From a virus, in the IMG/VR virus record IMGVR_UViG_3300035670_000108, positions 25,048 through 89,047 of that record: a stretch of DNA of 64,000 bases. The stretch is one strand, 5' to 3'. The notes beneath the pieces were generated by a model. The model saw only the letters and a program-made list of their open reading frames with translations, ran no database searches and was not told the origin of the DNA. Below, one piece after another: positions 14,879 through 33,261 of this stretch (positions within the stretch are counted from its first letter, which is position 1; each line of letters starts with the position of its first letter). A program made the translations under genes and the position numbers.

Positions 14879-14880
14879 GG

Positions 14881-15099: not shown

Positions 15100-15100
15100 C

Positions 15101-15631: not shown

Positions 15632-15658
15632 ATTGCCTCCTATGCAGGCAATCGACAG

Positions 15659-16069: not shown

Positions 16070-16070
16070 G

Positions 16071-16247
16071 TCAGGGCTCCTCTTGTTCGATCTGGTCGGC
16101 GACCCATTGCCAGTATCCCGACTGGATATTTCCTTCGGCGGCTTCCTGCCCCCACTCTCCACGGCTATATACCGGGTGCTCTCCCCAACTTGTCGCCGTG
16201 CCGTATTTGTCAGCTAGCTGCTCCGGTGTGAGGTCACGGTCGCTCAT
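16071..16247 (-). CDS. small hypothetical protein
   Basis: MSDRDLT...WGEHP.Y...W......GYW.WV motif; GGAGG RBS. Confidence 0.7.
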   Translation of the reverse strand: MSDRDLTPEQLADKYGTATSWGEHPVYSRGEWGQEAAEGNIQSGYWQWVADQIEQEEP

Positions 16248-16248
16248 G

Positions 16249-16854: not shown

Positions 16855-16900
16855 GATTTGCCTCCTGTGAGGGCAGTGGGATGCTGCAAAGACTTTGCAG

Positions 16901-17940: not shown

Positions 17941-17967
17941 GTTGCCTCCTATCTAGGCAATTGAAAG

Positions 17968-18273
17968 CTACAAAGTCTTTGCAGCCTTGGCGGTTAGAGC
18001 TAGCAGGGCCAGTCGATCTTGCCCTGCCGGTGTGTTGAGGTAGCAGCGGGGCAGGTGCATGACGCCGTCCCACTGGCGGGGCAGCAGATCCGGCCCCACC
18101 GAGGCCACACCCATCGCCCAGAGCAGCAGGTCGGCGCGCTTGTCACGGCGCAGCTGCTCGTCGAGCTTGGTCAGCACCGCGCAGCGCACCGCGGCGTCAT
18201 TGGTCAGCAGCTGCTCGGTCGTGTAGCAGAGCACCTGGCTGCCGTCGACAAGGGTGACCAGGAACTTATTCAT
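17968..18273 (-). CDS. hypothetical protein
   Basis: Start trimmed to MNKFLV; stop lies inside the palindrome. Confidence 0.6.
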   Translation of the reverse strand: MNKFLVTLVDGSQVLCYTTEQLLTNDAAVRCAVLTKLDEQLRRDKRADLLLWAMGVASVGPDLLPRQWDGVMHLPRCYLNTPAGQDRLALLALTAKAAKTL

Positions 18274-18751
18274 CGCCGGCAACCATGAAGACGGCCGGGT
18301 AGCCGTCCACCGCATCGGCGCCCTCCTGCAGGATGTCGCAGTCGATGGCGTCAGGGAACGGGCCTGGGGCGGTGCCGATCTTCGAGTACATCCAGCGCCC
18401 CTCCAGGTCATAGACCACGGTGTCCACCTCGGGGAAGAACGTGCGGACGTGCTCCATCGCCTTGGTCACCGCCTCGGGAGCCTCCGGAACCAGCTGGATA
18501 GACGGCGCCCCCTGTTGGCTTGGCACCAGCTCCACGGCTAGCCAGCGTTCGACCAGATTGCGGCCCCGCATGGTCAGAATGTGCTGGCCGTCGACCAGGG
18601 CCAGGAAGCCTTTGTCGCGCCAGAAGAAGTGGCACTCGGCCGAGGCCGGCGAGCTGGGGTTTACCTCGTTCCACTGATCGGCCGAGTAGTAGTAGTGCAA
18701 CAGCACGCGCAGCTGCGCCGGGGATACCTGGCGGTTGGGATTGTTAGGCAT
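18266..18751 (-). CDS. hypothetical protein
   Basis: 161-aa ORF behind a palindrome and RBS hairpin. Confidence 0.75.
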   Translation of the reverse strand: MPNNPNRQVSPAQLRVLLHYYYSADQWNEVNPSSPASAECHFFWRDKGFLALVDGQHILTMRGRNLVERWLAVELVPSQQGAPSIQLVPEAPEAVTKAMEHVRTFFPEVDTVVYDLEGRWMYSKIGTAPGPFPDAIDCDILQEGADAVDGYPAVFMVAGDE

Positions 18752-18797
18752 GATTTGCCCTCCTATTCAGGCAATGAAAGCTGCAAAGTCTTTGTAG

Positions 18798-19070
18798 CTA
18801 GCGACCGCAACAACTGCAATTTCGCGCGTCGTGGCCGTACATCTCGGTGTGCTTCGCGCTCAGCTGGCCATCCGAAAGGATCTCGGCGTCGGTATAGCTG
18901 CTGGCGTAGCACCAGGTGATCTCTACCTCTTTGCGCACATGGATGGTCGAGGTGAAGATGACGTGCTTGTTCAGCTCTCCGTCGTTGCCCGTCGGGCGGT
19001 CCTCGATGACCACGGTGTGCCAGTGGCGCAGCTGGCGCCCGCCCAGGTGGTTGTAGACGCGGCGGCTCAT
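18798..19070 (-). CDS. hypothetical protein
   Basis: MSRRVYN..., ATGA overlap; ends in C.CCG immediately before the palindrome. Confidence 0.7.
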   Translation of the reverse strand: MSRRVYNHLGGRQLRHWHTVVIEDRPTGNDGELNKHVIFTSTIHVRKEVEITWCYASSYTDAEILSDGQLSAKHTEMYGHDARNCSCCGR

Positions 19071-19402
19071 GGCGTGACTCCGCGGTTCCACTGGTACCAG
19101 TCGACGGTCATGCTGTCCGGATTCTCCAGCTCCAGCATCACCTCCACCTTGAACGCCATGCTGACCTTCACCTCTTCGGTGCCGTCCTCGTCCCAGGTCA
19201 CGGCCATTGCCGAGGCGTAACCATTGACCAGCTCCACCTCCTGATCAGCGAAGTGGTAGTCGGTGTCGTCGACGGACAAACGGGCCAGCATGACCTGCTG
19301 ATCCGGCATGTAGTTGTCGCAGAAGCCAATGGTGTCGATCACCAGGTCATCTACCACGATGGTGTCAGCCCGGTTAATCAGGTCGAAAAGTTTAGCCAGC
19401 AT
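19067..19402 (-). CDS. acidic hypothetical protein ending in VDWYQWNR
   Basis: 111-aa ORF behind a palindrome and RBS hairpin. Confidence 0.75.
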   Translation of the reverse strand: MLAKLFDLINRADTIVVDDLVIDTIGFCDNYMPDQQVMLARLSVDDTDYHFADQEVELVNGYASAMAVTWDEDGTEEVKVSMAFKVEVMLELENPDSMTVDWYQWNRGVTP

Positions 19403-19748
19403 GATTTGCCCTCCTATTCAGGCAATCGAAAGCTGCAAAGTCTTTGCAGCTGGGGTGTAATCGGGGGAATGACTGTCGTGCGAACTTCTGCACTTCCTCG
19501 GGCAGGTCGTCCCACTTCACTCGACGGCCCAGGTGCCTGCCCGGCGTCGCCGAGACGTGCATGCCGAATCCCTGCGGGTGGAAGGGGCGCTCGCTGGCGC
19601 CGATAGCCGACCAGGTGCCGTCGCGCTCGCGCTCCTCCTTGGCCCAGCGCGGCGGGATGATGGTGTAGCGGTCGAAGGTGCGACCGCCGTTGTCGTAGCA
19701 GCGCAGCGTCGTGCCGTAGCGCTGCAGGATGCCCATGCCCATGCTCAT
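19392..19748 (-). CDS. conserved hypothetical phage protein
   Basis: YDNGG.T.DRYT...PFHPQGFG.H......HLG.R....DLP..V block; ORF reads through the palindrome. Confidence 0.8.
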   Translation of the reverse strand: MSMGMGILQRYGTTLRCYDNGGRTFDRYTIIPPRWAKEERERDGTWSAIGASERPFHPQGFGMHVSATPGRHLGRRVKWDDLPEEVQKFARQSFPRLHPSCKDFAAFDCLNRRANHAG

Positions 19749-20038
19749 GGCTGGCTCCCCGCCTCCTGCCGGTTCCACTGGTACCAGTCGACGCTCATGC
19801 TGGTCTCCTTCACGTCGTGCAGGCTGGCCTTCATGCTCCCGTTGCGCTCGAAGGCCGGGAGCATGAAGGTGTACCCGCTGGAGTACCCGCTGCGCCGCTC
19901 CAGTTCGGCCATGTAGGGGGCCTGCAAACGCAGGTACAGGTCGAGCAGGCCGACCCGTTCCAGGGTGTCGTGGCTGAGGCTGCAGCGGAGCACCGCCGTC
20001 AAGGCGAAGTGCTCCTCCTTGGTGAGTTCAATTTGCAT
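19745..20038 (-). CDS. hypothetical protein ending in VDWYQWNR
   Basis: Start trimmed to MQIELT (GAGGAGG RBS in hairpin). Confidence 0.7.
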   Translation of the reverse strand: MQIELTKEEHFALTAVLRCSLSHDTLERVGLLDLYLRLQAPYMAELERRSGYSSGYTFMLPAFERNGSMKASLHDVKETSMSVDWYQWNRQEAGSQP

Positions 20039-20097
20039 AGCTGTTGCCTCCTCTATTGGGCAATCGAAAGCTGCAAAGACTTTGCAGCTATTGAATT

Positions 20098-20532
20098 TCA
20101 CAGGGTGAAAACCGGCTCCGGCCGAGCAAGGGTGGCCGTGCCCTCGACGTCGTCAGCCGCCGGCCTCACCCACATCTGGGTCTGGTCGTCCCAGATGAAG
20201 CCGGGGATCTCCATGCCGTCGGTCAACGGCTGATCCATGGGGTCGTCGTAGATGGGCGATTCCGCGTCCCCGCCTTTCCACTCGGGCGGCAGCAGAGGCT
20301 CCACGCCCTCCTCCGCCGGGCCGGGGCAGACCGGATAGCCCAGGGCGTCGAGGCGTGGCGTGATCGAGGAGCCGGCGACCAGGTACTCGCAGCCGGTGCC
20401 CTTGTCGACGAACAGGTTGACGGCCGTCGAGGCGGAGGGATGCCGGTCGAAGCCGGCACCTACCTGCGCCACGAAAATGGCGCCAAGACCGATCATCAGG
20501 ATCAAATCGCTCAGCTTGAGGGACGTCGTCAT
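20098..20532 (-). CDS. membrane-anchored DUF6440-like protein
   Basis: N-terminal TM; VD..TGC.YL....ITPRLDA.G.P motif. Confidence 0.65.
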   Translation of the reverse strand: MTTSLKLSDLILMIGLGAIFVAQVGAGFDRHPSASTAVNLFVDKGTGCEYLVAGSSITPRLDALGYPVCPGPAEEGVEPLLPPEWKGGDAESPIYDDPMDQPLTDGMEIPGFIWDDQTQMWVRPAADDVEGTATLARPEPVFTL

Positions 20533-20549
20533 TCTTCTGTGCTCCTAGT

Positions 20550-21520
20550 GCTGCGTGGGTGAGAGAAAATTTTGTCCTGGCTTGCACCGACAAGGGTGGC
20601 GAACCACCCGTCCAAGCTATTGATTTCAAAGGCGGTGTAAAAATTTGGTGTAAAAAGAGGTCACCAGAATGCCAACCGATATAGCTATAGCTCGGTGGGA
20701 ATTATGCTGATCTCTTCGCCGGTGCAACCTGGCTCCAGATTCTCATTTGAGAACTGGCCCCATTAACCTGCCCATTTTCTAGCCCCGATACACTCCTTGG
20801 CACTTCACCAGTCGAAACCACCCCATTCACCTGACTTGCACCTACCTGGCCGTATACCTACAAACACACCAGAAAGCGGGAAATTTTACACAGCCCGTTG
20901 ATCCATTAAGGTTTGAACCTGCAAAGTCTTTGCACCTTCCGCCCTGCAAAAACTAGGCGTTCACTGGGCCTTTTTTACTGCATAAATCAAACAGTGGTTT
21001 TTTCCCGACGAACGGCCCGTTCTCCGTAAATCTTCAGTGAAGATACATAACTGTGGAGAGTTTTGAGTCTAATCACCAGTTACTACCTCCGCTTGCAAAA
21101 AATGGAAGCGCAGTTGCACCGCCTTTTCGGAATGGCCTATACCGCTTGCACCTCGACCGTGAGCGATTTTGTCCGTGCAAGCCCGTGGAACATTTTGAGG
21201 GCCGTCGAACGGGTGTTTTAGCGCCGAAACGGGCGCAATGGTCGATGACTATCTGGGGGAATAGTGTGAATTTTGCTGCGAGGGAGGTGCAGAAAATTAC
21301 ACCAGTCGAGAGGACGGGGTGGGTGGTCGAGCAGATCGTTAGCTTGCTCTGTAGTTCCGCCAAAACACCCCCCTATAAAATAAAATAAAACATGAAATTT
21401 TTCTCTCTATATAAGGAAAAACGGGGCTTGCGGCTAGCCACAGAAGAAAAGGGCCGTATAGGAAAGATTGGCCAACAGTGGGTTATGGAACATTCAAAAA
21501 TCGAGGGTAAAACTCGACGG
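20550..21520. other. about 1-kb AT-richer non-coding region, candidate replication origin or control region
   Basis: No convincing ORF; IHF-consensus match at 20613-20625; GTGTAA repeats in both orientations; A/T tract at 21375-21421. Confidence 0.45.
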
Positions 21521-21562
21521 CCGTCTTACAGTGAGTTCGCCAGCCGTCGAGACCATTGCTCC

Positions 21563-21644
21563 CGCCACCCTTGTGCCCAGCACAGGGCGGTCGGAACAGG
21601 GCGCCGGGGATCCAGGCTCACGCCACCCTTGTGCCCTGCACAGG
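21563..21644. repeat. 24-bp direct repeat
   Basis: cgccacccttgtgccc(a/t)gcacagg at 21563-21586 and 21621-21644. Confidence 0.85.
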
Positions 21645-21995
21645 CCGGGCTCGATCCGAACGGACGACGTCGCCCAATGCCGAGGCCCAGTTCAACATGG
21701 CTTGGCGCCGGCCTTGTGCGAGGACGTCGTCGCGCTCCAGACCAGGGAGGTACTGCCCGGCCTTGCTCATGGCGACCGCACGGGCCATGACGATGGGCAT
21801 TACGCCGCATCCGGCGGGCAGGATGACGAGGCGGGGCGTACCCTGTACGGGGGTAGCGGCACAGAGGCGCAGGGCGTCTTCCAGGGCCTTCCTGACGGCA
21901 TAGCGGGGCTGCCCCTCGCTGAGTGCGGCCCCTTTTACGACGTGGTTGCGGTCGAGCAGCACGACGGCAAGGCGCAGGTGCAGGGTGTTTTGCAT
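21618..21995 (-). CDS. hypothetical protein
   Basis: Start trimmed to MQNTLH (AGGAGG in hairpin after the palindrome). Confidence 0.65.
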   Translation of the reverse strand: MQNTLHLRLAVVLLDRNHVVKGAALSEGQPRYAVRKALEDALRLCAATPVQGTPRLVILPAGCGVMPIVMARAVAMSKAGQYLPGLERDDVLAQGRRQAMLNWASALGDVVRSDRARPVQGTRVA

Positions 21996-22043
21996 GGTGT
22001 TGCCTCCTATTGCGGGCAGTGCAAGCTGCAAAGACTTTGCAGG

Positions 22044-22367
22044 TCAGGCGCTGAATTTGGTGATTTTGTGGACTTGGCTGACGGTGTACATGGGCAGGAG
22101 CTGGGTGCGGTCGGTATCGAACCGCACCTGGTCAATCGCCAGGAACCCGTGGCGCTGGTCAGTAGGCTGGACGGTGAACTCGACGTCGAAGCGCTGGCCA
22201 CGGCGCAGGCCCCACAGGGTGCGGGCGTCGTGCTCAGTCAGCAGCACTTCCACGGTGCGAGGGCGAACGGTGCCGCTGCGCACGTTGAGGGAGACCATGA
22301 AATATTCGCGCTGGGCAGCTGGCAGCGGGGTGGCTGCCAGGTCGATACGGTCGGCTTGCAGTTGCAT
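22044..22367 (-). CDS. hypothetical protein
   Basis: MQLQAD..., AGGAG RBS; bounded on both sides by palindromes. Confidence 0.7.
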   Translation of the reverse strand: MQLQADRIDLAATPLPAAQREYFMVSLNVRSGTVRPRTVEVLLTEHDARTLWGLRRGQRFDVEFTVQPTDQRHGFLAIDQVRFDTDRTQLLPMYTVSQVHKITKFSA

Positions 22368-22407
22368 GGCGTGGCTCCTGTGGACCTGCAAAGACTTTGC
22401 AGGTCGG

Positions 22408-22659
22408 TTAGCGGACGGTGCGGACGTAGACGGGCACGGCCCAGCGCGTGGCGCCGATCTGCTGGAAGACGGTCTGGGTCTGGAGCCACGGGCGGGCGCA
22501 GAGCTGGGGGCGCTGGCGGCGGGCGGAATCCGGGCGATCGATCACGCGGGGAATGTAGGGGGCGGATTCGACTTGGTGCTCTGCTGCCAGATGGTTGCAA
22601 CGGTCGGCGCCATGACCACGGCGGCCAATGTGGGCGAACAGGCGATTGAGTGCGTGCAT
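22408..22659 (-). CDS. hypothetical protein
   Basis: AAGGAG RBS; bounded on both sides by palindromes. Confidence 0.65.
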   Translation of the reverse strand: MHALNRLFAHIGRRGHGADRCNHLAAEHQVESAPYIPRVIDRPDSARRQRPQLCARPWLQTQTVFQQIGATRWAVPVYVRTVR

Positions 22660-22681
22660 GGTGAATCTCCTTTGCTGGATT

Positions 22682-22733
22682 GGGCTGCAAAGACTTTGCA
22701 GCTAGGGGGGCTGCAAAGACTTTGCAGCTAGGG
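22682..22733. repeat. tandem duplication of a 26-bp unit containing the palindrome
   Basis: gggctgcaaagactttgcagctaggg twice (22682-22707, 22708-22733). Confidence 0.9.
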
Positions 22734-22775
22734 GAAGCGCTTTGCCGTGCGGCCTGAAAAACAAGCGCGCACGGC

Positions 22776-22800
22776 AAAGCGCCCCACTAGGGGGCGCTTT
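22776..22800. terminator. GC-rich hairpin, possibly a bidirectional terminator
   Basis: aaagcgcccc-actag-ggggcgcttt just after the stop of 22814..23566. Confidence 0.6.
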
Positions 22801-22813
22801 TCTGGCGTGGGGT

Positions 22814-23566
22814 TTAGGCCGTTGCTTTTGCCAGTTCGGCCGCTTTCGCTTGCGATTCGCCCCGGCTTTTCGCATTGGGCTTGCCGGCGGCCGTGTTGCC
22901 GCGGCCTCTTTTCTCTGCCTTTTCCAGTGCAGCAGCAGTGCGCCGGTCAATTTCGGCCGCGATACGCTTATTTAATTCGTGCAGGTCTGCCGAACTGAAG
23001 GCTGCGAGTTGTTCCATAATGGCGCCGATAGAATCCACGCGCGGCGCGTTTTTATCCGATACCGATACGGCAGGGCCTTTGCCAGTGGCGGCCGGTTTAG
23101 AGGCGGCCGGTTTAGCAGGGAAAAGGCGCGCATTGACTGCATTAAGCGCCTTTTGATCGTGGCCTAGCGCGGCCTTTACTTCGCCTTTCGTCGGCTTTTC
23201 CAGAATGATGACGTTTGCTTTACAGGCGCCACGATCAAGCGCGATATAGCAGACGGCCGGCCGGGACTCTTCTGCAATGGCGCCCCAAATTTGGCGAACA
23301 TGCGTGGCGATACTGTTAGCAATGCGTGCCCAGCTCTCGGCGTCAATTTGTTCTTTTTTGGTCAATTGTTCGGCCAACTGGACAAAAACGCTTTCCAGCG
23401 TAGTCCCGATGACCGGCACGGGCGAAGCGAAGAGGGCGCGCACCTGGTCGGCTAGTTTGCCGCGTGCTTTATCGGCTTGCGTGGCGGCCTGCACAATGGC
23501 GGCGGCACTGCCGTTTACTTTTTGAACAGCGGCGGCAACGGCTTTATTTTGGCTGGTGGTTTGCAT
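22814..23566 (-). CDS. Ala/Lys-rich first gene of the leftward operon
   Basis: 250-aa ORF with GGAG RBS; visibly more AT-rich codons than neighbours. Confidence 0.75.
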   Translation of the reverse strand: MQTTSQNKAVAAAVQKVNGSAAAIVQAATQADKARGKLADQVRALFASPVPVIGTTLESVFVQLAEQLTKKEQIDAESWARIANSIATHVRQIWGAIAEESRPAVCYIALDRGACKANVIILEKPTKGEVKAALGHDQKALNAVNARLFPAKPAASKPAATGKGPAVSVSDKNAPRVDSIGAIMEQLAAFSSADLHELNKRIAAEIDRRTAAALEKAEKRGRGNTAAGKPNAKSRGESQAKAAELAKATA

Positions 23567-23754
23567 GGTATGGACTCCGGTATTAGATAAGGCGAAGAGC
23601 GCGAGCGATGAAATAGGCGGCCGGTATGCAAAGCGCGACGATTACTAGTTCCATGCTGCGGCCCTTCTGTTAGGTTTGCCGGTCTGCAAAGTGTTTGCAG
23701 CTTCCGGTCTGGCTTGTGACCGGCTCATAAATGCACCCGGCACGCCCTACACAT

Positions 23755-23770
23755 AGCAGAAGGCGTGCCA
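23755..23770 (-). promoter_or_regulatory. sigma54 (RpoN) -24/-12 promoter candidate
   Basis: Minus strand TGGCACGCCTTCTGCT versus consensus TGGCACG-N4-TTGCW. Confidence 0.65.
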
Positions 23771-23789
23771 ACTACGAAAATCCCTTATA

Positions 23790-23802
23790 AATCAATGACT
23801 TA
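23790..23802 (+). promoter_or_regulatory. IHF-binding site
   Basis: AATCAATGACTTA matches WATCAANNNNTTR. Confidence 0.65.
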
Positions 23803-23826
23803 GCAGTTGGCACAGTTTTTGAGAAG

Positions 23827-23864
23827 TGACGTAAATGGTCACAAAGTGCTGACAATTTGCGTCA
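23827..23864. promoter_or_regulatory. pair of TGAC-N7-GTCA dyad boxes (candidate enhancer)
   Basis: TGACGTAAATGGTCA (23827-23841) and TGACAATTTGCGTCA (23850-23864); 13/15 identical when one is reverse-complemented. Confidence 0.55.
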
Positions 23865-23938
23865 CATGACCCACCCCCCACTTTTTGTGCCAACTTTCCC
23901 TGGTGCGGCCTACTCCCCTCCTCGCGGTTCCCAGAATT

Positions 23939-23967
23939 TTGCCAATCCCAACTGTACGGAGTACACT
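23939..23967 (+). promoter_or_regulatory. sigma70-like rightward promoter
   Basis: TTGCCA-N17-TACACT upstream of the gene at 24028. Confidence 0.6.
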
Positions 23968-24027
23968 GCCACAGGCCCCGCCATTGCCCTCATACACAGG
24001 CAATGACCCTTCCCCAGGAGATCGACC

Positions 24028-24510
24028 ATGACCGAGACCACCACCCCCGCCCCAACCCAGATTGGCGTGCAGCTGCGCTACCGCCTCCCCGGCGCCTCCG
24101 CCGACATTGACCTGCTGTTCGTCTCGACCGCTGACAAGGCTGAGCATGTCCGTGCCCTGCTGGCAGGCGAGCTGGAGCAGGAGCCGGTAGTCGATGCCGC
24201 GCCCCTGGCCCCCGCCGCCATGGCCCTGATCAATGCCCTCCACCGCATCCAGGCCCAGCTCGACGAGGACGAGGCCCGCATGGAGGACGGCGGCATCCAC
24301 AACCCGATCGCCGGTACCAACATCGCCAGCTCGTGCTTCATCGCCGACCTCCGCGCCCTGGGCAGCTCGCCCAAGCAGGTGGCCCTGCTGCTGGCCTGCA
24401 ACACCGGCTTCTACAACACCGACAACAACCCGGAGATCTTCTTCAGCCGTCGGCGCTTCGCCCCGGCGCCGAACTTCTACGACCTGGCACTCGAGGGGGT
24501 CAGTGCATGA
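24028..24510 (+). CDS. hypothetical protein
   Basis: 160-aa ORF with AGGAG RBS. Confidence 0.75.
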   Translation: MTETTTPAPTQIGVQLRYRLPGASADIDLLFVSTADKAEHVRALLAGELEQEPVVDAAPLAPAAMALINALHRIQAQLDEDEARMEDGGIHNPIAGTNIASSCFIADLRALGSSPKQVALLLACNTGFYNTDNNPEIFFSRRRFAPAPNFYDLALEGVSA

Positions 24511-25544
24511 GCACCAACCTATGGCTGCGCAAGGCCCTCCCCTACCGCCTCACCAACGACGTACCGCTGTTCATGGCCCGCGGTCTGCTGGGCGAGTCCA
24601 GTTGGGAGGTTCACCAGGAGCTGAACAAGGCGCTCAACCAGCGGCCGGCGCGGGCGCCCGCGAGCAACGAGCTGAGCACCTATGGCTTCGTCGACCCTTT
24701 CCCGCCTCGCGCCATCACCCTGGCTGAGGTCAACGAGGAGCCGACCCTGGAAGAGACCATCGACGCGCCACCCCTTGCCCAGCTGGTGCGCCCCATCAAC
24801 AACGGCGAGTTCCTGGTGGTCTGCGCCGAGTACCAGTACCGCGACCTGAAGACCCAGGTGATCAAGCGCGAGCTGAAGCTCAAGACCGACAAGATCGAGT
24901 TCGAGCAGCAGCGCAAGGTGTACAAGAAAGAGCGCGACCAGCTGAAGGACGAGATCGTGCAGCAGCTGTTGCCACGGGCCTTTGTGCTGGCGCGGCGCAC
25001 CCCGGCGATCATCGACACCCAGCGCGGGGTGATCTGGGTCGGCTCTGGCACGGCCAAGGCGGCGGAGGATCTGCTCAGCACGCTCAGGGAGTGCCTGGGC
25101 AGCCTGCCGATCCGCCCGTACCAGGTGAAGATCGCGCCGTCGGCCTCGTTCACTGACTGGGTCCGCGAGGGGAAATGCCCGCAGGACTTCCACCTGCTCG
25201 ACCTGGCGCTGTTCGAGGACACCAGCGAGGACGGTGGCAAGGTCGGAATGATCCGCCAGGACCTCACCGGCGAGGCGACCCAGATGGTGGTGGCCGAGGG
25301 CAAGATCGCCACGAAGATCGCCATCGCCTACCAGGACAAGGTCAGCTTCGTGGTCAACGACAAGCTGCAGTTCACCTCCATCCGCTTCGAGGATCTGCTG
25401 GCGGATCAGGCCGCCCAGGAGGGTGGCGATGATGCCCACGGCCAGCTGGAGGCGTCGGCGCTGATCACCGGCAGGACGCTGCGGGATATGCTCGAAGAAC
25501 TGTCGCTGAACCTCGGCGGCGAAGAAATTCCACAGGGGATCTGA
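24507..25544 (+). CDS. rdgC: recombination-associated protein RdgC
   Basis: LW.....YRL N-terminus, ...QRKVYKKERDQLKDEI...LLPRAF..., AEDLLSTLRECLGSLP; ATGA overlap. Confidence 0.9.
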   Translation: MSTNLWLRKALPYRLTNDVPLFMARGLLGESSWEVHQELNKALNQRPARAPASNELSTYGFVDPFPPRAITLAEVNEEPTLEETIDAPPLAQLVRPINNGEFLVVCAEYQYRDLKTQVIKRELKLKTDKIEFEQQRKVYKKERDQLKDEIVQQLLPRAFVLARRTPAIIDTQRGVIWVGSGTAKAAEDLLSTLRECLGSLPIRPYQVKIAPSASFTDWVREGKCPQDFHLLDLALFEDTSEDGGKVGMIRQDLTGEATQMVVAEGKIATKIAIAYQDKVSFVVNDKLQFTSIRFEDLLADQAAQEGGDDAHGQLEASALITGRTLRDMLEELSLNLGGEEIPQGI

Positions 25545-25545
25545 G

Positions 25546-26016
25546 ATGAACGGATATGAGCTGACGCTGGGAATCCTGGGGATTATCGTGATCGGCGTGG
25601 TGCTGGGGCTGTTCTGGTGGGGCGTGAATCGCTGGGCAGCTGGAGGGGAGGAAGCGCGCGAGCGTGAGGATCGCCAGGAGGGGGTCAAGCGCGCTGCCCA
25701 GGCAGAGATGGCACGCTCGCGTGGGCCGAAGGTGGTGGAGGGCAAGGTCAGGCGGGAGCTGTCGCCTATGTACAGGGGCGAGGCACCGGGGAGGTCTGGG
25801 TTGTCGGTAGGGGAGGGGGTTCCCCTCCGCCCGGAAAGGGGCCAGGTCTACGACCCACTGCACCCCTTGAACCCGATCAGCCCGATTTCACCGTTCAACG
25901 TGGGCGATCGCGGGTCTGCAGATTGCGCTCCGAAGCACGACGGCGGGGAGGGTTACGGCAGTAGCTCGCCGTCCTGCAGCGATAGCAGCAGCTCGTCTCC
26001 GAGCAGTAGCGACTGA
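25546..26016 (+). CDS. membrane protein with a Ser-rich tail
   Basis: N-terminal TM; PLHPLNPISP and SSSPSCSDSSSS. Confidence 0.7.
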   Translation: MNGYELTLGILGIIVIGVVLGLFWWGVNRWAAGGEEAREREDRQEGVKRAAQAEMARSRGPKVVEGKVRRELSPMYRGEAPGRSGLSVGEGVPLRPERGQVYDPLHPLNPISPISPFNVGDRGSADCAPKHDGGEGYGSSSPSCSDSSSSSPSSSD

Positions 26017-26195
26017 CCGATAGGGGTCTTTTCAGGCCCCTATTCGCTGTTTTAGACCGAAATAGGTCATTTTTCATGCAAAAGACAAGCAAAATCGGTG
26101 AAATTGCCTCAAAAACAGGGCAAATCGCCTCGTTTTCGTGCGATTTTACTGCGTTTTGCTCGATATTTTCTTCGCTCACGGAGGGCTTCTGAGCC

Positions 26196-26885
26196 ATGTC
26201 AAACCTTAACTTCGAGCAGAAACAAGCGTGCCGGACCAACCCGCTGGCCGCCTACCTCGCCAAACGCATCAACTGGATGATCCTGCTGGTCACCGTGCTC
26301 AACCTGTGCACGATCGGCCTCGCAGCGCTGGCGGCGGTATACGGGGCCGGTGGCACCTCGTCTGAAATCGTCCACGCTCTGCACCTGTGGGCCTTCGGCC
26401 TGCTGGCGATCAACCTTCTCAGCGGCCTGGTGCTGATGGCCGAGCTGTTCTGGATGCGCCAGCATCAGATCTCGCCTGAGAGCTTCTGCAGTCTGGGAGA
26501 GCATCAGCCTCCCGCTGAGGCGGTGGAGGAGTCCACAGACGGATCGTTCCTGGCCAAGGGTATCAACCACGACTGGCGCGAGTTCGTGCAGGGCGCCCGC
26601 CGCTTCGCCAGCTACGCCGGCCGCAACCATGGCGCCGGCCGCACAGCGATGGAGAAGGAATACAACCGCTCGATGGAGATCCAGGCCAAGGCCCTGGCAG
26701 ACCTGGTCGAAGCCCTCTCCTTGTCCATCGAGGAGAAACAGCAACTGGGCTTCCACGGCAGCCAGGTGGGGTTCCGCCAGAAGGAGATGACCACCCGCAC
26801 GCTGCAGCGGGTCACCCGCACCGCCCAGGAGGCTATCCGGGCTCTGCACGGAAAAGGCCGGCGCAAGCCCCTTGCCAAATCCTAA
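26196..26885 (+). CDS. two-TM membrane protein
   Basis: 229-aa ORF with two hydrophobic helices. Confidence 0.7.
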   Translation: MSNLNFEQKQACRTNPLAAYLAKRINWMILLVTVLNLCTIGLAALAAVYGAGGTSSEIVHALHLWAFGLLAINLLSGLVLMAELFWMRQHQISPESFCSLGEHQPPAEAVEESTDGSFLAKGINHDWREFVQGARRFASYAGRNHGAGRTAMEKEYNRSMEIQAKALADLVEALSLSIEEKQQLGFHGSQVGFRQKEMTTRTLQRVTRTAQEAIRALHGKGRRKPLAKS

Positions 26886-26899
26886 TTGCCCGCTATGAT
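26872..26899 (+). promoter_or_regulatory. sigma70-like promoter for the candidate sRNA
   Basis: TTGCCA-N16-TATGAT. Confidence 0.55.
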
Positions 26900-26905
26900 G
26901 GCAAC

Positions 26906-27008
26906 TGACCCCGCCAAGGAAGGCGACGATTTGGCGAGATCGAAGGGTCATGGAGGGAGCGGAGGCGCCAGGATGGCAGAACGGGGTGGCTAAGCCACCC
27001 CGTTTTTT
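26906..27008 (+). ncRNA. candidate RsmY/RsmZ-like (CsrA/RsmA-binding) small RNA
   Basis: About 100 nt between a promoter and a terminator; five GGA motifs, two in hairpin loops (cgcc-aaggaa-ggcg, gcc-aggat-ggc). Confidence 0.55.
26980..27008 (+). terminator. rho-independent terminator
   Basis: aacggggtggc-taa-gccaccccgtt followed by a T tract. Confidence 0.9.
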
Positions 27009-27069
27009 ATGGACAACTGGTTGCCCAATTGCCATGATAAGTGGGCAATTACCCACATACGAGGCAACC

Positions 27070-27369
27070 ATGTCCGAGAAACGTAAGCCAGACCTCACCC
27101 TGGTGATGCAGCCTGCCAACGGTACGAAGGTCCGCTACGAGATCTTCGACGGCTCGCAATTCATCGACCGCATGCAGAAGGTGCCCTTCTTCCACGCGGA
27201 GAACCCCAACGTCCAGCTGTCCCCGGTCGACCTGGAGAATCACCACTTCGTGCGCGTGCGCGTGGACGGCGTATGGCTGCCGAAGGGTACCCGGGCGATG
27301 TTCCCCATGTGGCGGGTGGCCACACTGTCGGCCCAGCACATGCAGTCCATGCTCGGGGGTGACGCATGA
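27070..27369 (+). CDS. hypothetical protein
   Basis: Start trimmed to MSEKRK (GAGG RBS); RVRVDGVW motif. Confidence 0.7.
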   Translation: MSEKRKPDLTLVMQPANGTKVRYEIFDGSQFIDRMQKVPFFHAENPNVQLSPVDLENHHFVRVRVDGVWLPKGTRAMFPMWRVATLSAQHMQSMLGGDA

Positions 27370-27728
27370 AAGCCCTGCTCGCCTGGTTCGTCATCGGCCT
27401 GACCTTCAACACCCGTATGGTCTACATGATGATGTCGGAGATCTCCAAGCGCCGGGCCTTCAACGGCACCAACCCACTTCTGGTCATGTTCGACGGTTTC
27501 CTCCTGACCCTGGCCGGCGTGCTACTGTTCGCCCTGCCGGTGGTGGCGATCGTGTTCTTCCCCGTTACCAGCCTCTGGCTGGTGGTGATGAACCGCCGCG
27601 AGTGGCACCAGATTCGCAACCTGACACGCGAAGGGCGGGTTCAATGGGCATCTGGGACAATCGCGGAGCCTGCCACCGCCGGCCCCGAACCTGAGCCTAC
27701 CGTGGAGGAACCGCAGCATGGGCAGTAA
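27366..27728 (+). CDS. membrane protein
   Basis: Several hydrophobic segments; ATGA overlap. Confidence 0.7.
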   Translation: MKALLAWFVIGLTFNTRMVYMMMSEISKRRAFNGTNPLLVMFDGFLLTLAGVLLFALPVVAIVFFPVTSLWLVVMNRREWHQIRNLTREGRVQWASGTIAEPATAGPEPEPTVEEPQHGQ

Positions 27729-28335
27729 GGGTGGTTTCTCCCTGGAAGAGCGTCTGCTGCAGAACGCCGTAGACACCGTGGTGAAGAACCGGGACGAGTA
27801 CGAAGTTCCTGTCCTGATCCACCTGGTGCAGGCGGTGGTAGAGCGCAAGGATCTGGCCCCAGGCCTGTACCGCATCCTCGCCGCCGCGCTGACCACCGAC
27901 CAGCTCAAGGAAATGGGGCTGCACGTCGGCGGCATGGCCGGTACCGGCGACGACGTCATGAACTACCTGACCATGCCGAAGCTGCACCGCACCTTGTTGC
28001 GTGGCATCCAGCAGATGCAGGAAAAGCTCATGCCGGGCGGTTTCCTGATGACCAGCAAGGACGTCGACCACACCGACGCCACCCGCATGCTCCGCGACTG
28101 CACCACCCAGCTGGAGAAGGTCTTGCGCCTGACCAAGTCGGCCCGCGCCAACGCCGAGGTGCTCCGCCTGAAGGAAGCCCTGGGTGACGGTCTGAAGGCG
28201 ATCGCCGCCGAGATGGGCAAGGAGCATAGCGCGCGGGCCTACGAGATCATGACCGCCGCGATCAACGCCAGCCTGACCAAGACCCAAGTGGCGCTGGACA
28301 TCGAGATGAAGGACGCCGAGGAGCTGACGGGTTGA
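27718..28335 (+). CDS. putative terminase small subunit
   Basis: Helical 205-aa ORF overlapping the TerL start; call is positional only. Confidence 0.45.
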   Translation: MGSKGGFSLEERLLQNAVDTVVKNRDEYEVPVLIHLVQAVVERKDLAPGLYRILAAALTTDQLKEMGLHVGGMAGTGDDVMNYLTMPKLHRTLLRGIQQMQEKLMPGGFLMTSKDVDHTDATRMLRDCTTQLEKVLRLTKSARANAEVLRLKEALGDGLKAIAAEMGKEHSARAYEIMTAAINASLTKTQVALDIEMKDAEELTG

Positions 28336-30185
28336 GCAACAACAAGCTCCTCGAGGATTTCAAGGGTGGCGCCGTCGGCGCCAACCTGATGGCACAGCTG
28401 CACTCCTCGGTGTACGGCGCCACCGACTTCAGCCAGCTCTCCACATGGCTGGAGCAGAACACCCGCCACCCCTTGCGCCCCAAGCAGAACTGGACGTTTG
28501 CCGAGCACGAGTACCAGATCGACATCCTCAACTCGACCTGGCACGAGGAGTTCTACCAGAAGTGCTCCCAGGTAGGCGCCTCCGAGCTGTTCGTGCGCAT
28601 GAAGCTGGCGATGCTGGGTATCAGCGAGGCCATCACGATCATCTACGTGCTGCCGACCCGCACCTTCGCCCTGCGCTTCGCCAAGGGCCGGGTTGACCCG
28701 GTCATCGAGAGCAGTGACGCGCTCAAGGCCATGCTCAACAAGGACGTCAACTCGTCCGAGATGAAGCAGTTCGGCCACAGCTTCCTGTACATCACCGGCT
28801 CCTTCGGCCAGTCGTCCGCGATCTCGATCCCGGCGCAGGCGCTGTTCTGGGACGAGGTCGACTTCTGCGACCAGCAGAACCTGACCACCTTCCGCAGCCG
28901 GATGGGCCACTCCAAGGAAGACGACCTCTGGTTCGTCCGCGGCTTCAGCACCCCCACGGTCTTCGACTACGGCATCAACGCCTACTACAAGAAGGGCTCC
29001 CAGGCCTTCTACGGCGTGTGGTGCAACCAATGCCGCGACTTCGTCGAGGTGCAGTTCATGCGAGACGTGGTCGTGCCGGGCTTCGACCGCGACATGAAGG
29101 AGTGGGGCAAGGATTGCCTGGACGACCCGGCCCTGGACATCGACGCCACCTTCTTCCGCTGCAACTGCTGCCAGCAGCAGATCCCCTGGAAGAACTTCCT
29201 GGACCCGGCCAAACGCCGCTGGGTGCATACCTTCCCCGAGCGCAAGATCCGCTCGCGCCAGATCAGCCCCTTCGACGTGCCGGAGATCAACAACCCGGCG
29301 CGGACCCTGCGGCACGTCGCCGACTACGAGGTCACGGCCGACTGGGTGAACTTCAAGGTAGGCCTGCCCTTCGAGGACGCCAGCTCCAGCTTCCTGGTGG
29401 AGACGGCAGAGTGGGGCAAGGGATTCCAGATCTCGCCACCCTTGTCCCACCGGGAGCTGGATCAGCTGGTGAAGGAGAAGGGCATGCAGGACAACCTGCC
29501 GGCCTTCCTGGAGTGGCTCTTCGAGCAGCCTCAGATCGCCAGCTCCTGCACCATCGGCATGGACGTGGGCAAGCTCTCCTGGATCACGGTCCAGGCCGTC
29601 GGAGGGGTCGCCCGCCACCTGGTCTTCGCCGAACGCGCCCAGGCTGCCAGCGGTAACCTGCTGTTCCGCTACCTGTATATCTTCCACACCTTCGGCTGCG
29701 TGTTAGGGGTGGTCGACGCTGGCCCAGACTTCACGCTGAGTCAGAGCCTGGTCCGTGCCCTGCCGGGCCGTATCTACGCCTGCTACTACGCTACGGCCAA
29801 GGACAACCAGCTGCAGCGTTTGAAACTCGACCAGGAGCAGGGGATTGTCACTGCATTGCGGACCCGCACCCTGGATATGCTGGTGCGCGCGTTCAATAGC
29901 GGTAAGATTGCGCTGGCCAAGCTGGCCGAAGAGGCGGCGATCAAGTCACACCTGAAGGCCCTGAAGCGTGTCACCGAGATGGAAGACGAGGGCGAAAAGG
30001 GCAACATGGAGAAGGCTAAGTGGGTGTCCACCGGTGACGACCACTTCGGCCACTCCCTGGTTTACTCGAGTATCGCCGCCGACCTGGTGCACAGCATGGA
30101 CGGCCTGGAGGCGCTCGACCGCGCCGGTGGGGCCCACAAGCTCGGTGTGCTGCCGAATGTTGGCAGGTTGAAGATCCACCGCTAG
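28332..30185 (+). CDS. terL: terminase large subunit (lambda GpA-like)
   Basis: KCSQVGASE (Walker A), LFWDEVD (Walker B), STPT, CxxC pairs, nuclease GMDVG...DDHFGH. Confidence 0.9.
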   Translation: MSNNKLLEDFKGGAVGANLMAQLHSSVYGATDFSQLSTWLEQNTRHPLRPKQNWTFAEHEYQIDILNSTWHEEFYQKCSQVGASELFVRMKLAMLGISEAITIIYVLPTRTFALRFAKGRVDPVIESSDALKAMLNKDVNSSEMKQFGHSFLYITGSFGQSSAISIPAQALFWDEVDFCDQQNLTTFRSRMGHSKEDDLWFVRGFSTPTVFDYGINAYYKKGSQAFYGVWCNQCRDFVEVQFMRDVVVPGFDRDMKEWGKDCLDDPALDIDATFFRCNCCQQQIPWKNFLDPAKRRWVHTFPERKIRSRQISPFDVPEINNPARTLRHVADYEVTADWVNFKVGLPFEDASSSFLVETAEWGKGFQISPPLSHRELDQLVKEKGMQDNLPAFLEWLFEQPQIASSCTIGMDVGKLSWITVQAVGGVARHLVFAERAQAASGNLLFRYLYIFHTFGCVLGVVDAGPDFTLSQSLVRALPGRIYACYYATAKDNQLQRLKLDQEQGIVTALRTRTLDMLVRAFNSGKIALAKLAEEAAIKSHLKALKRVTEMEDEGEKGNMEKAKWVSTGDDHFGHSLVYSSIAADLVHSMDGLEALDRAGGAHKLGVLPNVGRLKIHR

Positions 30186-30215
30186 AATCCGCTGCATCCA
30201 TAGGGAGATGGTCAA

Positions 30216-31694
30216 TTGGCCGCACAGAACGGAAAGAGGGGTAGCTCAGGCGCCAGCAGCAAGCTGGCACCGCAGCCTATTCTCCCTCGCAAGCTGGCCA
30301 ACAAGGCTAAATCGGTAGGCGCTGCCAGCGGTACCGACAAAGGCCAGGACATCTCCAACAACCGCACGGTCTACATCAACCAGTCGGTCAAGGCGCTCCG
30401 CGACCAGAACCGGCCGGTGGCCGCCCTCCGGGAGCTGGCCCGGGTAGACGGTACGGTTGGCAGCGCGATCTTCAACTTCGTGGAGATCGCCCACACCTCG
30501 TTCAAGGTCTGGGCCTTCGACGCTGCCACGCACCAGCCGCTGCCAGAGGCCACCATGGTGGCCCGCACCATCCTCTCGCGCTTCGACACCGTCTACGACT
30601 ACACCCTGGGCTTCGCCGACAAACCGACCATCCGCATGGCGCTGGAGCAGATGCTCCTGGAAACCGTGCTGGGTAACGGCTTCGGCTGCGAGCTGGTGCT
30701 GGACAAGTCGCTGTTGCCTGACCGCCTGCAGGTCAGCAACTACGACAGCCTGACCTGGGTCAGCCAGGGCGACGGCCTGCGCTACCCGAAGCAGCAGGGC
30801 AACGACGGCGAGGTGGAGCTGAACATCCCCAACTTCTTCGTGGGTGAGCTGCACCTGTCGCCGGCCTTCGCCTACGCGACGCCCATGCTGGAGCCGGCGA
30901 TCAACGACTCGTTCTTCTTCCGCGAGTTCATCGAGGACATGCGCCGCACGGTTCGCCGCGCCGCCAACCCCCGCCTTGCCGCCAAGCTGATCACCGAGAA
31001 GATCATCGAAGCCTGCCCGCTCGACGTGAAGATGAACCCCACCAAGATGCGTGACTGGCTCGACGCTCGCCGCGCCGAGGTGGAAGCGGTGCTGTCCGAC
31101 CTGGAGCCGGAAGATGCCCTGACCTTCTGGGACTCGGTGGAGATCGACGCGATCAAGATGGCCGGCGAGAAGCAGGACTTCGTGCCGCTGCTCAACGCCA
31201 TCAGCGGCCTGCAGGCGACCAACCTGAAGGCCCCGCCCAGTATCCTGGGCCTGCGCCTGGAGGGCAGCCAGTCGCTGTCCAACACAGAATCCATGGTCTT
31301 CCTGAAGGTCGCGGCCTCCATCCGCAAGCCGGTGGAAGACGTCATGAGCCGCGCCTTGACCCTCGGCGTGCGCCTGTACGGCCAGAACGCCTACGTGGTC
31401 TTCGAGTTCGATCCCATCGACCTCCGCCCCGAGAACGAGGTGGAGGCTTTCCGCGTGATGCGCCAGAGCCGTATACTGGAGCAACTGTCCCTGGGTTTGA
31501 TCAGCGACGACGAGGCATTCATCCAATTGGGCCTCGAGTATTCCCCGGCTGGCTATAAACCGTTATCCGGTACTATGTTTTACAAGGCCGATGCCTCCGC
31601 CGAGCAGGCGAGCAAGGCATCACCCAACAGCGACCCGCAAGGGAAGGCGCTCCAGTCTGACCAGCCGAAGAAGGCTGGCGGGGCGAGCCAGTGA
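30216..31694 (+). CDS. portal protein
   Basis: 492 aa directly after TerL; GNGF.ELV, P..ILG and F.F..IDL patterns; TTG start. Confidence 0.8.
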   Translation: MAAQNGKRGSSGASSKLAPQPILPRKLANKAKSVGAASGTDKGQDISNNRTVYINQSVKALRDQNRPVAALRELARVDGTVGSAIFNFVEIAHTSFKVWAFDAATHQPLPEATMVARTILSRFDTVYDYTLGFADKPTIRMALEQMLLETVLGNGFGCELVLDKSLLPDRLQVSNYDSLTWVSQGDGLRYPKQQGNDGEVELNIPNFFVGELHLSPAFAYATPMLEPAINDSFFFREFIEDMRRTVRRAANPRLAAKLITEKIIEACPLDVKMNPTKMRDWLDARRAEVEAVLSDLEPEDALTFWDSVEIDAIKMAGEKQDFVPLLNAISGLQATNLKAPPSILGLRLEGSQSLSNTESMVFLKVAASIRKPVEDVMSRALTLGVRLYGQNAYVVFEFDPIDLRPENEVEAFRVMRQSRILEQLSLGLISDDEAFIQLGLEYSPAGYKPLSGTMFYKADASAEQASKASPNSDPQGKALQSDQPKKAGGASQ

Positions 31695-31704
31695 AGGAGC
31701 ACAC

Positions 31705-33261
31705 ATGAGCCGCCAGAGCCATAGCCAAGGGTCTACCCCGCTGTACTGGTACAGCGCGAACGTCCAGTCGTTCAACGACTGGATGGAGTCGCGCAAGCAC
31801 ATTATGGCGATGAACCCTCTGCAGCTGGCCGCTGAGAAGGCCAAGCTGCTGTCCGGTAACCAGGTGCAGATCCGCGGCTCTATCGAAGGCGACTACAAGC
31901 CGGCCTTCGGCGACGGCAGCCAAGACTACATGATGACCCGCTACAAGAACCTGGCGCTGATCAACATCAGCGGCACCCTTGTGGCGTCCGACAACTGGTA
32001 CAACCGCTACTACGGCATGATCTCCTACGCCGAGATCCGCCGCAGCATCCTGATGGCCCTGGAAGACAAGGCTGTCACCGGCATCCTGGCGACCATGAAC
32101 ACCCCCGGCGGTAACGCCAGCGGCGCCGACGCGATGGCCACCTTCTTCAAGAAGACCGACCAGTCCAAGCCGTTCTACGTTTTCGCCGAGACCGAGATGT
32201 GCTCGGGCGGCTACTACCTGGGTGCCCCTGCGCGCGAGGTGTACGCCCAGCGCGCCTCCTTGATCGGCTCCATCGGCGTGATCATGGTGCACATGGACAT
32301 CCTCAACATGTACGAGGAGATGGGCATCAAGCCCACCGTCTTCCGTGCTGGCGAGTTCAAGGCCCTGGGTAGCCCGTATGAGCACCTGGACAAGAAGGCG
32401 CAGGGCGTCATCCAGTCCACCCTGGGCAACTACTTCGACATGTTCAACGACCACGTCGTGGACTGCCGGAGCTACAGCAACGTGGCTGATTTCCGCGCTA
32501 CTGCGGGCGAAGGCCGCGTGTTTATGGCTGAAGAAGCCAAGGAAGTCGGCCTGGTTGACCAGGTCGCTGAGATGGAGGAGGCCCTGGACGAGGTGTCCCA
32601 GAAGTCCAACCGGATCTCCGGGAAGTCCAGTCAATTCGCCGTTACATCGAACCTGAAAGGGACCAAGCTCATGTCTTATGCACAGCTCCTGGCGTTGGCC
32701 GCCTCTGGCGTCCAGCTGACCGCTGAACAGCAAGCCATCCTCGACGCCGGTGATCCGGATGCCCCTGCGGTGGAAGCCGAGGCGGGTGACAACGTGGTCG
32801 AAGATCCGACCAAGCCGGCAGTGGAAGCCACCGCCGAGCCGGTCGTTGAAGAACCAGCGCCTGCAGCCCCGGCTGTAGTCGCCTCCGCTGACCTGAACAA
32901 GGTCATCGAACTGTCTACCGAGCTGGGCCAGGCCAAGGCCACCGTCACCAAGCTGGAAGGTGACCTGTCCAAGCTCCAGACCGAACTCGATGCCTCCAAG
33001 GCGACCATGTCGTCCTTGCAAGCCATCGTGTGCCAGGCCATCTCTCACCGTCAGGTGGCGCTGGGTTACCAGCCGTCCCCTGCCGAGGATATGACGGCCA
33101 GTCAGCAGGTCGAGCTGTTCAACAAGCTCGACGCTGTCTTCAAAGAGCGGATCAAGGCGGGGCAAGTCTCGAAGCCGACGTCAGCACAGCCTAGCGCTTC
33201 TGCTACTCTGTCGCCGACTCCGGTAATGGAAGCTGCCCGCAACCTGACCGGCAAACTCTGA
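31705..33261 (+). CDS. S49 (SppA-type) prohead protease fused to scaffold
   Basis: NTPGG, CSGGYYL, GSIGV and AGEFKA motifs; acidic/coiled-coil C-terminus. Confidence 0.9.
   Translation: MSRQSHSQGSTPLYWYSANVQSFNDWMESRKHIMAMNPLQLAAEKAKLLSGNQVQIRGSIEGDYKPAFGDGSQDYMMTRYKNLALINISGTLVASDNWYNRYYGMISYAEIRRSILMALEDKAVTGILATMNTPGGNASGADAMATFFKKTDQSKPFYVFAETEMCSGGYYLGAPAREVYAQRASLIGSIGVIMVHMDILNMYEEMGIKPTVFRAGEFKALGSPYEHLDKKAQGVIQSTLGNYFDMFNDHVVDCRSYSNVADFRATAGEGRVFMAEEAKEVGLVDQVAEMEEALDEVSQKSNRISGKSSQFAVTSNLKGTKLMSYAQLLALAASGVQLTAEQQAILDAGDPDAPAVEAEAGDNVVEDPTKPAVEATAEPVVEEPAPAAPAVVASADLNKVIELSTELGQAKATVTKLEGDLSKLQTELDASKATMSSLQAIVCQAISHRQVALGYQPSPAEDMTASQQVELFNKLDAVFKERIKAGQVSKPTSAQPSASATLSPTPVMEAARNLTGKL
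32671..33261 (+). CDS. nested in-frame scaffolding protein
   Basis: Internal ATG (MSYAQLL) preceded by AAAGGGA; same layout as lambda C/Nu3. Confidence 0.55.
   Translation: MSYAQLLALAASGVQLTAEQQAILDAGDPDAPAVEAEAGDNVVEDPTKPAVEATAEPVVEEPAPAAPAVVASADLNKVIELSTELGQAKATVTKLEGDLSKLQTELDASKATMSSLQAIVCQAISHRQVALGYQPSPAEDMTASQQVELFNKLDAVFKERIKAGQVSKPTSAQPSASATLSPTPVMEAARNLTGKL

Follow-up and report, generated by a model that had tools for sequence, protein, structure and literature searches.

The locus considered here lies in an 89,047-bp IMG/VR virus record with direct terminal repeats (IMGVR_UViG_3300035670_000108), of which bases 25048–89047, a stretch of 64,000 nucleotides (nt) with a G+C content of about 63%, were analysed as a single window whose own positions are used throughout. 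Genes within this window run leftward in a block extending up to ~23.5 kb and rightward after it. In the rightward part, a 184-nt gap separates a gene of 229 amino acids (aa; 26196..26885, + strand) from a gene of 99 aa (27070..27369, + strand) that opens the packaging/late block, and this gap is occupied by a compact unit composed of a predicted promoter (P1), a short G-rich RNA body with five GGA motifs and a strong intrinsic terminator, directly followed by a second predicted promoter (P2). The original prediction read the unit as an RNA of the RsmY/RsmZ type, acting as a sponge for the regulator RsmA (CsrA). The feature is real and its conservation is confirmed; most probably it represents a new small-RNA gene of the phage, linked to the region that controls the late promoter. 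Its likeness to Rsm RNAs is loose and does not amount to membership, and a sponge function is a minority hypothesis.

The unit, its two promoters and their shared dyad

P1 (26872..26899, + strand) consists of TTGCCA (26872–26877) and TATGAT (26894–26899) separated by 16 nt, and agrees with the consensus at 10 of 12 positions; the final codons of the 229-aa gene overlap its −35 box. It is one of four promoter-like sites detected in the interval 22000–32000, compared with 1.6 ± 1.2 in shuffled sequences. Judging from the position of the −10 box, the RNA would start near 26906, and its predicted 5′ domain (26906..26950, + strand) is closed by a stem between UGACCC (26906–11) and GGGUCA (26945–50) that encloses two hairpins, the first of which (26912–25, CGCC-AAGGAA-GGCG) presents an ANGGAX hexaloop and the second of which is devoid of GGA. 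A G-rich linker (26951..26966, + strand) with three mostly unpaired GGA motifs leads to hairpin 3 (26967..26977, + strand), GCC-AGGAU-GGC, which takes the form GCCA-GGA-UGGC in the minimum-free-energy fold. The intrinsic terminator (26978..27008, + strand) has a G+C-rich stem of 11–13 bp, a 3-nt loop and a run of six T residues at 27003–08, and its 12-nt arms (26980–91 and 26993–27004) are perfectly complementary; it was seen in the fold and in an inverted-repeat search, and was omitted by the promoter/terminator scan.

The GGA motifs start at 26918, 26952, 26956, 26961 and 26971, and all five are mostly unpaired in the minimum-free-energy fold of 26906–27009. The elements of the original prediction, namely the promoter, the positions of the five GGA motifs, two GGA stem-loops with the TGACCC/GGGTCA closing stem of the 5′ domain and the strong terminator at 26980–27008, were all recovered at this level, and its description of an intergenic promoter-to-terminator unit of about 100 nt is upheld by a cassette that is non-coding and conserved in relatives. 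A Rho-independent terminator would end an RNA within the 100–350-nt range, the discrete RNA itself being predicted. A small protein was also considered and rejected: an ATG at 26950, in frame with the 99-aa gene, occurs in the window only, and since the extension it would create is absent from the relatives, the unit is taken to be non-coding.

P2 (27010..27038, + strand; TGGACA-N17-CATGAT with a TG before the −10 box) matches 9 of 12 consensus positions and starts 2 nt past the T-run. Both promoters carry a dyad around the −10 box, TTGCC-N9-GGCAA at P1 (26886..26904, identified by the inverted-repeat search) and TTGCC-N10-GGCAA at P2 (27029..27048), and in the window these two are inverted copies of each other. 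The pattern TTGCC-N9/10-GGCAA occurs 10 times in the window, between 12416 and 27048, against 0.15 copies expected, a count that 0 of 100 shuffles reached; two records of relatives, G001 (24 kb) and G002 (28.6 kb), hold two sites each and no copy of a control pattern. In the leftward early genes, the dyad encloses an AGGAGG ribosome-binding site (RBS) and follows a 17-bp palindrome, while on the rightward side the dyad is found in the leader that follows the 23939 promoter, ahead of the 229-aa gene (26104) and at the −10 boxes of P1 and P2. In the nine early-gene leaders inspected, all on the minus strand (3283–22060), the palindrome reads CTGCAAAG-N-CTTTGCAG and stands 6–7 nt before the dyad; its centre of 1 nt suggests a site on DNA bound by protein, not a hairpin in RNA.

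At both promoters, the left arm of the dyad precedes the predicted start, and the dyad there must act on DNA, or on transcripts arriving from upstream. The original prediction proposed a circuit with GGA-hairpin leaders; the leader dyads do exist, and the presence of that same dyad at the −10 boxes is no less suggestive of a DNA operator than of a site on RNA. Because each promoter carries this genome-wide dyad around its −10 box, we infer that one phage regulator may control P1 and P2 together.

Conservation of the cassette in relatives

Relatives were sought through two genes. A search of IMG/VR with the large terminase returned four contigs at 69–71% identity, and a search with the 99-aa gene returned five metagenome loci and no new close IMG/VR contigs. 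The compared set comprises the contigs L006, L003, L004, L008 and L007, each with a 99-aa homologue 47–52% identical and with sequence upstream of it; L003, L004 and L008 are close variants, leaving three lineages besides the window. The duplicate loci L012–L014 and L016–L018 are the same contigs as L006, L004 and L003, and L005 was left out because its sequence upstream of the terminase, 236 nt long, is too short to include the place of the unit.

The order of the cassette, with P1, a short G-rich stretch, a strong terminator, a second promoter-like site and an RBS followed by the MSEKR start of the 99-aa protein, is kept in five of five contigs, and the predicted RNA measures 73–110 nt across the lineages. 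P1 adjoins or overlaps the 3′ end of the upstream homologue, reading TTGACA-16-TATCCT in L003 (10/12, flagged by the scan as one of four promoter-like sites in 11.8 kb) and TTGCAA-16-GATAAT in L007 (9/12, the sole flagged site in 3 kb). Terminators occupy the equivalent place in L003, L007 and L006. The RNA bodies cannot be aligned across lineages; the P1 hexamers and their spacing nonetheless persist. Within the L003 group, the three changes in P1 all lie in the spacer and leave both hexamers unchanged, and variable positions number 2 of 42 in the body, compared with 54 of 530 for the gene upstream and 8 of 299 for the one downstream, small numbers that are consistent with constraint.

Nowhere in the gap is conservation higher than in the P2 stretch. 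Its position is kept in all four lineages, as is its dyad (with AGCAA as the right arm in the L003 group), and the site in L003 is the same, at 9/12. At P1, L006 has ATGCC-N10-GGCAT around the −10 box. Since P2 follows the terminator in every lineage, the late genes would not depend on read-through from P1. The stretch also holds an octamer, TGGTTGCC at 27018–27025, that is perfectly complementary to GGCAACCA at 27063–27070, in the RBS region and start of the 99-aa gene; this pairing would form only in transcripts from upstream of P2, and L003 has the same motif pair.

At the RNA level, hairpin 3 and the terminator are the sole parts backed by a two-sequence alignment between the window and L006. 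Hairpin 3 is the best-conserved piece of the RNA between these two, a GCC-AGGAY-GGC element just 5′ of the terminator with all three pairs identical. The 5′ closing stems of the window and L006 look analogous in separate folds and occupy non-aligned columns, and no compensatory change is claimed for them. L006 carries six GGA motifs in 110 nt, four of them mostly unpaired, with a AAUGGAUG loop and a GCC-AGGAC-GGC hairpin whose place and stem are those of hairpin 3. The L003, L004 and L008 RNAs (74–80 nt) have four GGA each, of which one, two and one, respectively, are mostly unpaired and one of the four is in the terminator stem; they also contain a weak CC-AGGGAA-GG hairpin. Conservation of the GGA motifs, on which the original prediction had staked its reading, therefore holds in part: it extends to L006, identical hairpin 3 included, and to L003, L004 and L008, with three motifs outside the terminator, and stops at L007. 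A run of four G3 tracts in the L006 linker (3382–3402, GGG-CGA-GGG-AC-GGG-AC-GGG) fits the G-quadruplex motif; as a common feature of the unit, a G-quadruplex was rejected, four G3 runs being present in L006 only.

The 99-aa family extends to 24 clusters in a large protein collection. In its more distant loci (L009, L010, L011, L015 and L019, 24–38% identity), about 370 nt of upstream sequence read by eye contained no promoter-terminator cassette in five of five cases. L009 (175–240) has, directly before the start of the 99-aa homologue and after a TTGACT-N17-GATAAT site, a perfect 18-bp inverted repeat with GGGGCAA and TTGCCCC and no T-run.

Genomic setting

The 229-aa protein upstream of the unit, taken from the list of open reading frames, has two predicted N-terminal hydrophobic segments and matched no PHROG family and no Pfam family above cut-off. 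In L006, L003 and L004, the unit is preceded by a homologue of this gene with 30–35% identity. The gap before this gene (26019–26195) contains a terminator (26019–26044) and an A+T-rich stretch with a dyad (26104–26123), so that the gene, having terminators on both sides, stands alone between them; the L006 record has a similar dyad upstream of its homologue. The L006 homologue (2498–3382) lacks the usual stop and reads 18 codons on, across P1 and into the RNA. Also in the rightward part is an RdgC-like recombination-associated gene (24333–25544), which a protein atlas places in the Pseudomonadota and nothing finer.

Downstream, the 99-aa gene, with its conserved MSEKR start and no assigned family, is followed on the + strand by genes at 27366–27728 and 27718–28335, the large terminase (28332–30185) and the portal (30216–31694). 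A third near-consensus promoter (30160–30188, TTGGCA-N17-TAGAAT, 10/12) lies at the end of the large terminase gene, just 5′ of the portal gene, with the same hexamers and position in two relatives (L003 and L006, 6823–6851). The GGA-densest stretches of the genome are found elsewhere, at window positions 56935–57056 (+ strand), within a reading frame of 1160 aa, and at genome positions 1241–1327 (− strand), with eight and seven GGA per 75 nt, respectively. No tRNA was found in the window.

In a cultured-phage collection, 26000–27500 had no DNA match and the 99-aa gene no protein match. The nearest cultured phages are distant, the large terminase being at most 33% identical to those of the Pseudomonas phages Lana, UAntarctica and PMBT3 and of Vibrio phages. 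A search for the host among species genomes returned no relative of the 99-aa family or of a 443-aa hydrolase.

Possible functions of the unit and related systems

We favour, with a probability of roughly 0.4, the reading of the conserved cassette as a stand-alone small-RNA gene of an uncultured 89-kb tailed phage, regulated together with the late promoter. The grounds are that selection keeps P1, whose only certain product is the short RNA, and that P2 frees the late operon from read-through. Under the stand-alone small-RNA reading, transcription would begin near 26906, from a sigma-70-type P1 that overlaps the 3′ end of the 229-aa gene, and yield an RNA of ~100 nt ended at 27008 by the strong intrinsic terminator; that a discrete RNA is made and ends there is quite likely. 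P2, two bases past the terminator, would drive the packaging/late operon, making the RNA a product in its own right and not a leader needed by the late genes, and one phage regulator, acting via the shared dyad, would switch the RNA and the late operon together.

Whether the RNA then acts in trans is a tentative proposal, for which the odds fall somewhat short of even. Within it, the most concrete mechanism, possible and unproven, is that the G-rich body, presenting A(N)GGA in small loops and an open linker (in 3 of 4 lineages), serves as a decoy, its target being a protein that recognizes GGA or Shine–Dalgarno-like loops. The decoyed protein would be either host CsrA/RsmA or a phage factor recognizing the phage's own TTGCC-AGGAG-GGCAA leaders. 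Hairpin 1 counts in favour of a decoy because its ANGGAX hexaloop placed directly on a stem matches what the available text of PMC4005645 gives as the high-affinity form for RsmE/CsrA, and the conservation of hairpin 3 between the window and L006 counts likewise. Few exposed motifs may suffice for such binding, since only three of the seven GGA motifs of the Pseudomonas aeruginosa RNA RsmW lie in outer loops and RsmW binds RsmA, as shown by gel shift in the portion of PMC4950607 consulted. A specific role for CsrA/RsmA as the partner is nevertheless improbable, because one lineage is GGA-free, the motif count follows composition, the search of species genomes returned no host and the abstracts on Gac/Rsm-linked defence point the other way.

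Several results weigh against the small-RNA reading or its decoy mechanism. Stretches with five or more GGA motifs make up 0.68% of 75-nt windows (genome, + strand) and, when both strands of the window are taken, 2.2% of those of 103 nt; shuffles of the body itself, which is 43% G and 11% T, show that such a count is nothing out of the ordinary (p 0.19 mononucleotide, 0.43 dinucleotide). It is likewise as expected in L006, and since composition matches it, the GGA count is not independent evidence. The fold of 26906–27009 reaches −48.3 kcal/mol with a z of −4.2, most of which is the terminator's, because the body alone has a z of −1.95 and is only marginally better than its shuffles, 7 of 200 of which fold as well; without their terminators, the bodies of L006 (z −0.44), L003 (+0.24) and L007 (−0.84) fold no better than shuffles. 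The basic property of the RNA body is its G-richness plus a few small hairpins. L007, with an RNA of 75 nt, has no GGA at all in a body that is still 37% G, which sets it apart from the exposed motifs of the window (5/5), L006 (4/6), L003 (1/4), L004 (2/4) and L008 (1/4). P1 in L006 (TTGCAA-16-CATACT) and the sequences at the place of P2 in L006 (TGGACA-N17-CAATAT) and L007 (TTGCCT-N17-CATACT) each reach 8/12 by manual count and were not flagged by the scan. A short-word BLAST search of the phage genome for antisense targets gave no complementarity above 11 nt (E ≥1.6) besides the terminator palindrome, which does not favour a base-pairing role.

Transcript and physiological evidence adds to these reservations. 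Of 24 listed sequencing runs, 20 hold part of the stretch as near-identical DNA, from subsurface, soil and wastewater samples in 11 studies. Four RNA-labelled runs gave contigs at a depth below 10 with no starts or ends, which may be DNA carry-over; one such contig, which may also be DNA, spans 26933–27456 across the terminator, and in another RNA run the apex of the terminator palindrome is where two contigs break off, as is expected of assemblers. The RNA-labelled runs decide nothing on a discrete transcript. According to the abstracts of two reports, an active Gac/Rsm pathway, in which RsmA is titrated away, raises anti-phage defence in Pseudomonas, so that an RsmA sponge could hurt the phage carrying it.

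A serious rival, albeit itself rather unlikely, is that the unit acts in cis on the late operon: P1 would be a loading site, the RNA a leader, and a phage factor bound at the promoter dyad, as is lambda Q, or at the conserved pre-terminator hairpin, as lambda N at boxB, would carry polymerase past the terminator, leaving the short RNA as a by-product like the 6S RNA from lambda PR′-tR′. The layout, in which a promoter, a ~100-nt transcript and a strong terminator lie directly upstream of packaging genes, is that of lambda PR′-6S-tR′, and the dyad stretches from between the −35 and −10 boxes to just past the −10 box of P1. A body that evolves fast, at 73–110 nt, while promoter and terminator are kept, that shows no special folding and that lacks GGA in one lineage would also suit a by-product, and the contig bridging the terminator, if RNA, would suit read-through. 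Against this stand P2, which follows the terminator immediately and carries a dyad of its own in all four lineages, making read-through unneeded, and the upstream 229-aa gene, which belongs to no antiterminator family. The Q families PF06530, PF03589 and PF06323 had no matches at E≤1 in the 89-kb genome, a weak argument given the diversity of such proteins; in a read-through RNA, moreover, 27018–25 could pair with the RBS region at 27063–70, which would not help translation of the first late gene. A plainer alternative is that only the terminator matters, ending the 229-aa mRNA and shielding P2 from incoming transcription, with P1 weak or silent and the GGA stretch a G-rich 3′ untranslated region. 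Terminator and P2 are indeed the best-kept parts, and the composition-level GGA count, the unremarkable body fold, the L006 upstream frame that continues into the unit and the 8/12 P1 of that contig all agree with it. This reading is unlikely in view of the near-consensus P1 hexamers, kept at the correct spacing in the window, the L003 group and L007 despite unalignable surroundings, and of the changes in the L003 group, which avoid them. By manual reading, the window and L006 also share the −35 letters TTGC(C/A)A, placed in different reading frames of the upstream gene, which speaks for a signal in the DNA more than for a constraint on the protein.

The remaining alternative, that the phage captured a host rsmZ, rsmY, rsmX or csrB gene, appears largely refuted and is very improbable. 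The Rfam search that the original prediction had proposed for RsmX, RsmY, RsmZ and CsrB gave nothing at gathering score anywhere in the window, and membership of these families found no support. What speaks for capture is that the sole Csr/Rsm-clan match in the 64-kb window, to PrrB/RsmZ (RF00166, clan CL00106) over the full model length (1–133), falls exactly on the unit. This match scores 17.8 bits against a gathering score of 44, with an E of 0.065 in a 501-nt slice, where it is second by bits to a terminator-driven sraA match on the other strand, and of 8.2 over the window, where it is one of eight chance-level matches. Its alignment begins at 26840, upstream of P1 and in coding sequence, and the match is not independent evidence, since it depends on the very GGA hairpin and terminator that gave rise to the original prediction. 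No Csr/Rsm-clan member was matched at E≤10 in slices of L006, L003 and L007, and loose-threshold Rfam searches of the relatives' whole loci and 500-nt slices returned only terminator-driven chance matches, mostly to microRNA families. The GacA box TGTAAG-N6-CTTACA, as quoted in the consulted part of PMC4950607, had four matches in 64 kb with up to three mismatches, against 8.3 expected, and none upstream of P1; a phage copy need not keep this feature. On these sequence grounds, the unit is not a member of the Rsm/Csr RNA families.

Should the RNA indeed titrate CsrA/RsmA, this would be the first case of a phage entering that network at the RNA level. Genes for CsrA-like proteins are present in 30 of 2517 phage genomes, as given in the accessible text of PMC7366521; in this genome, PF02599 had no match at E≤1, and no paper on a phage-borne Csr/Rsm sponge RNA was among the results listed by full-text literature searching. 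Such a sponge would also pose a puzzle, since active Gac/Rsm reportedly raises anti-phage defence in Pseudomonas. In its fullest form, the idea is that a virulent phage encodes an RNA decoy against a regulator binding GGA or Shine–Dalgarno loops, and that a shared operator turns this decoy on along with the late operon; the sponge would then set early/late timing or rewire host post-transcriptional control, and the regulator could be host CsrA/RsmA or a phage translational repressor of the early-gene TTGCC-AGGAG-GGCAA hairpins. This fuller scenario is quite unlikely. Sponge role aside, the locus offers a compact and testable model in which tandem promoters are split by a terminator and both lie inside a dyad that is also found on many early-gene RBSs, and the region could show how an uncultured phage group organizes its switch to late expression.

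Among known systems, lambda PR′-6S RNA-tR′ with Q, and nut/boxB with N, are examples of processive antitermination. The unit resembles them in its strong promoter, short terminated RNA and adjoining late genes, in the possible factor site within the promoter and, for nut/boxB, in a small conserved hairpin ahead of a terminator; it differs in having a second conserved promoter past the terminator, no Q-family protein found, and no pause element or boxA identified. Lambda OOP and P22 Sar are stand-alone phage small RNAs antisense to a neighbouring phage gene. The unit shares with them, and with an intergenic non-coding RNA of ~100 nt of phage phiKZ described in the consulted part of PMC8545117, the form of a short phage RNA from an intergenic unit, and departs from OOP and Sar in that no opposite-strand overlapping gene with homologues and no complementarity of more than 11 nt is found in the genome.

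The RNAs RsmZ/PrrB, RsmY, RsmX and CsrB are set apart from the unit by its sub-cut-off score, relatives with no match, the missing GacA box, a GGA content that does not exceed composition, one GGA-free lineage and a phage-borne place beside a late promoter. Points in common are a length of ~100–130 nt, a dedicated promoter and an intrinsic terminator, together with several GGA motifs free of pairing, a stem-borne ANGGAX hexaloop and, immediately 5′ of the terminator, a hairpin that carries GGA. RsmW, as presented in the available text of PMC4950607, lies at the 3′ end of an upstream gene, with which it is co-transcribed and from whose mRNA it is processed. The unit differs from RsmW in having a separate predicted promoter and resembles it in its position at the 3′ end of an upstream gene.

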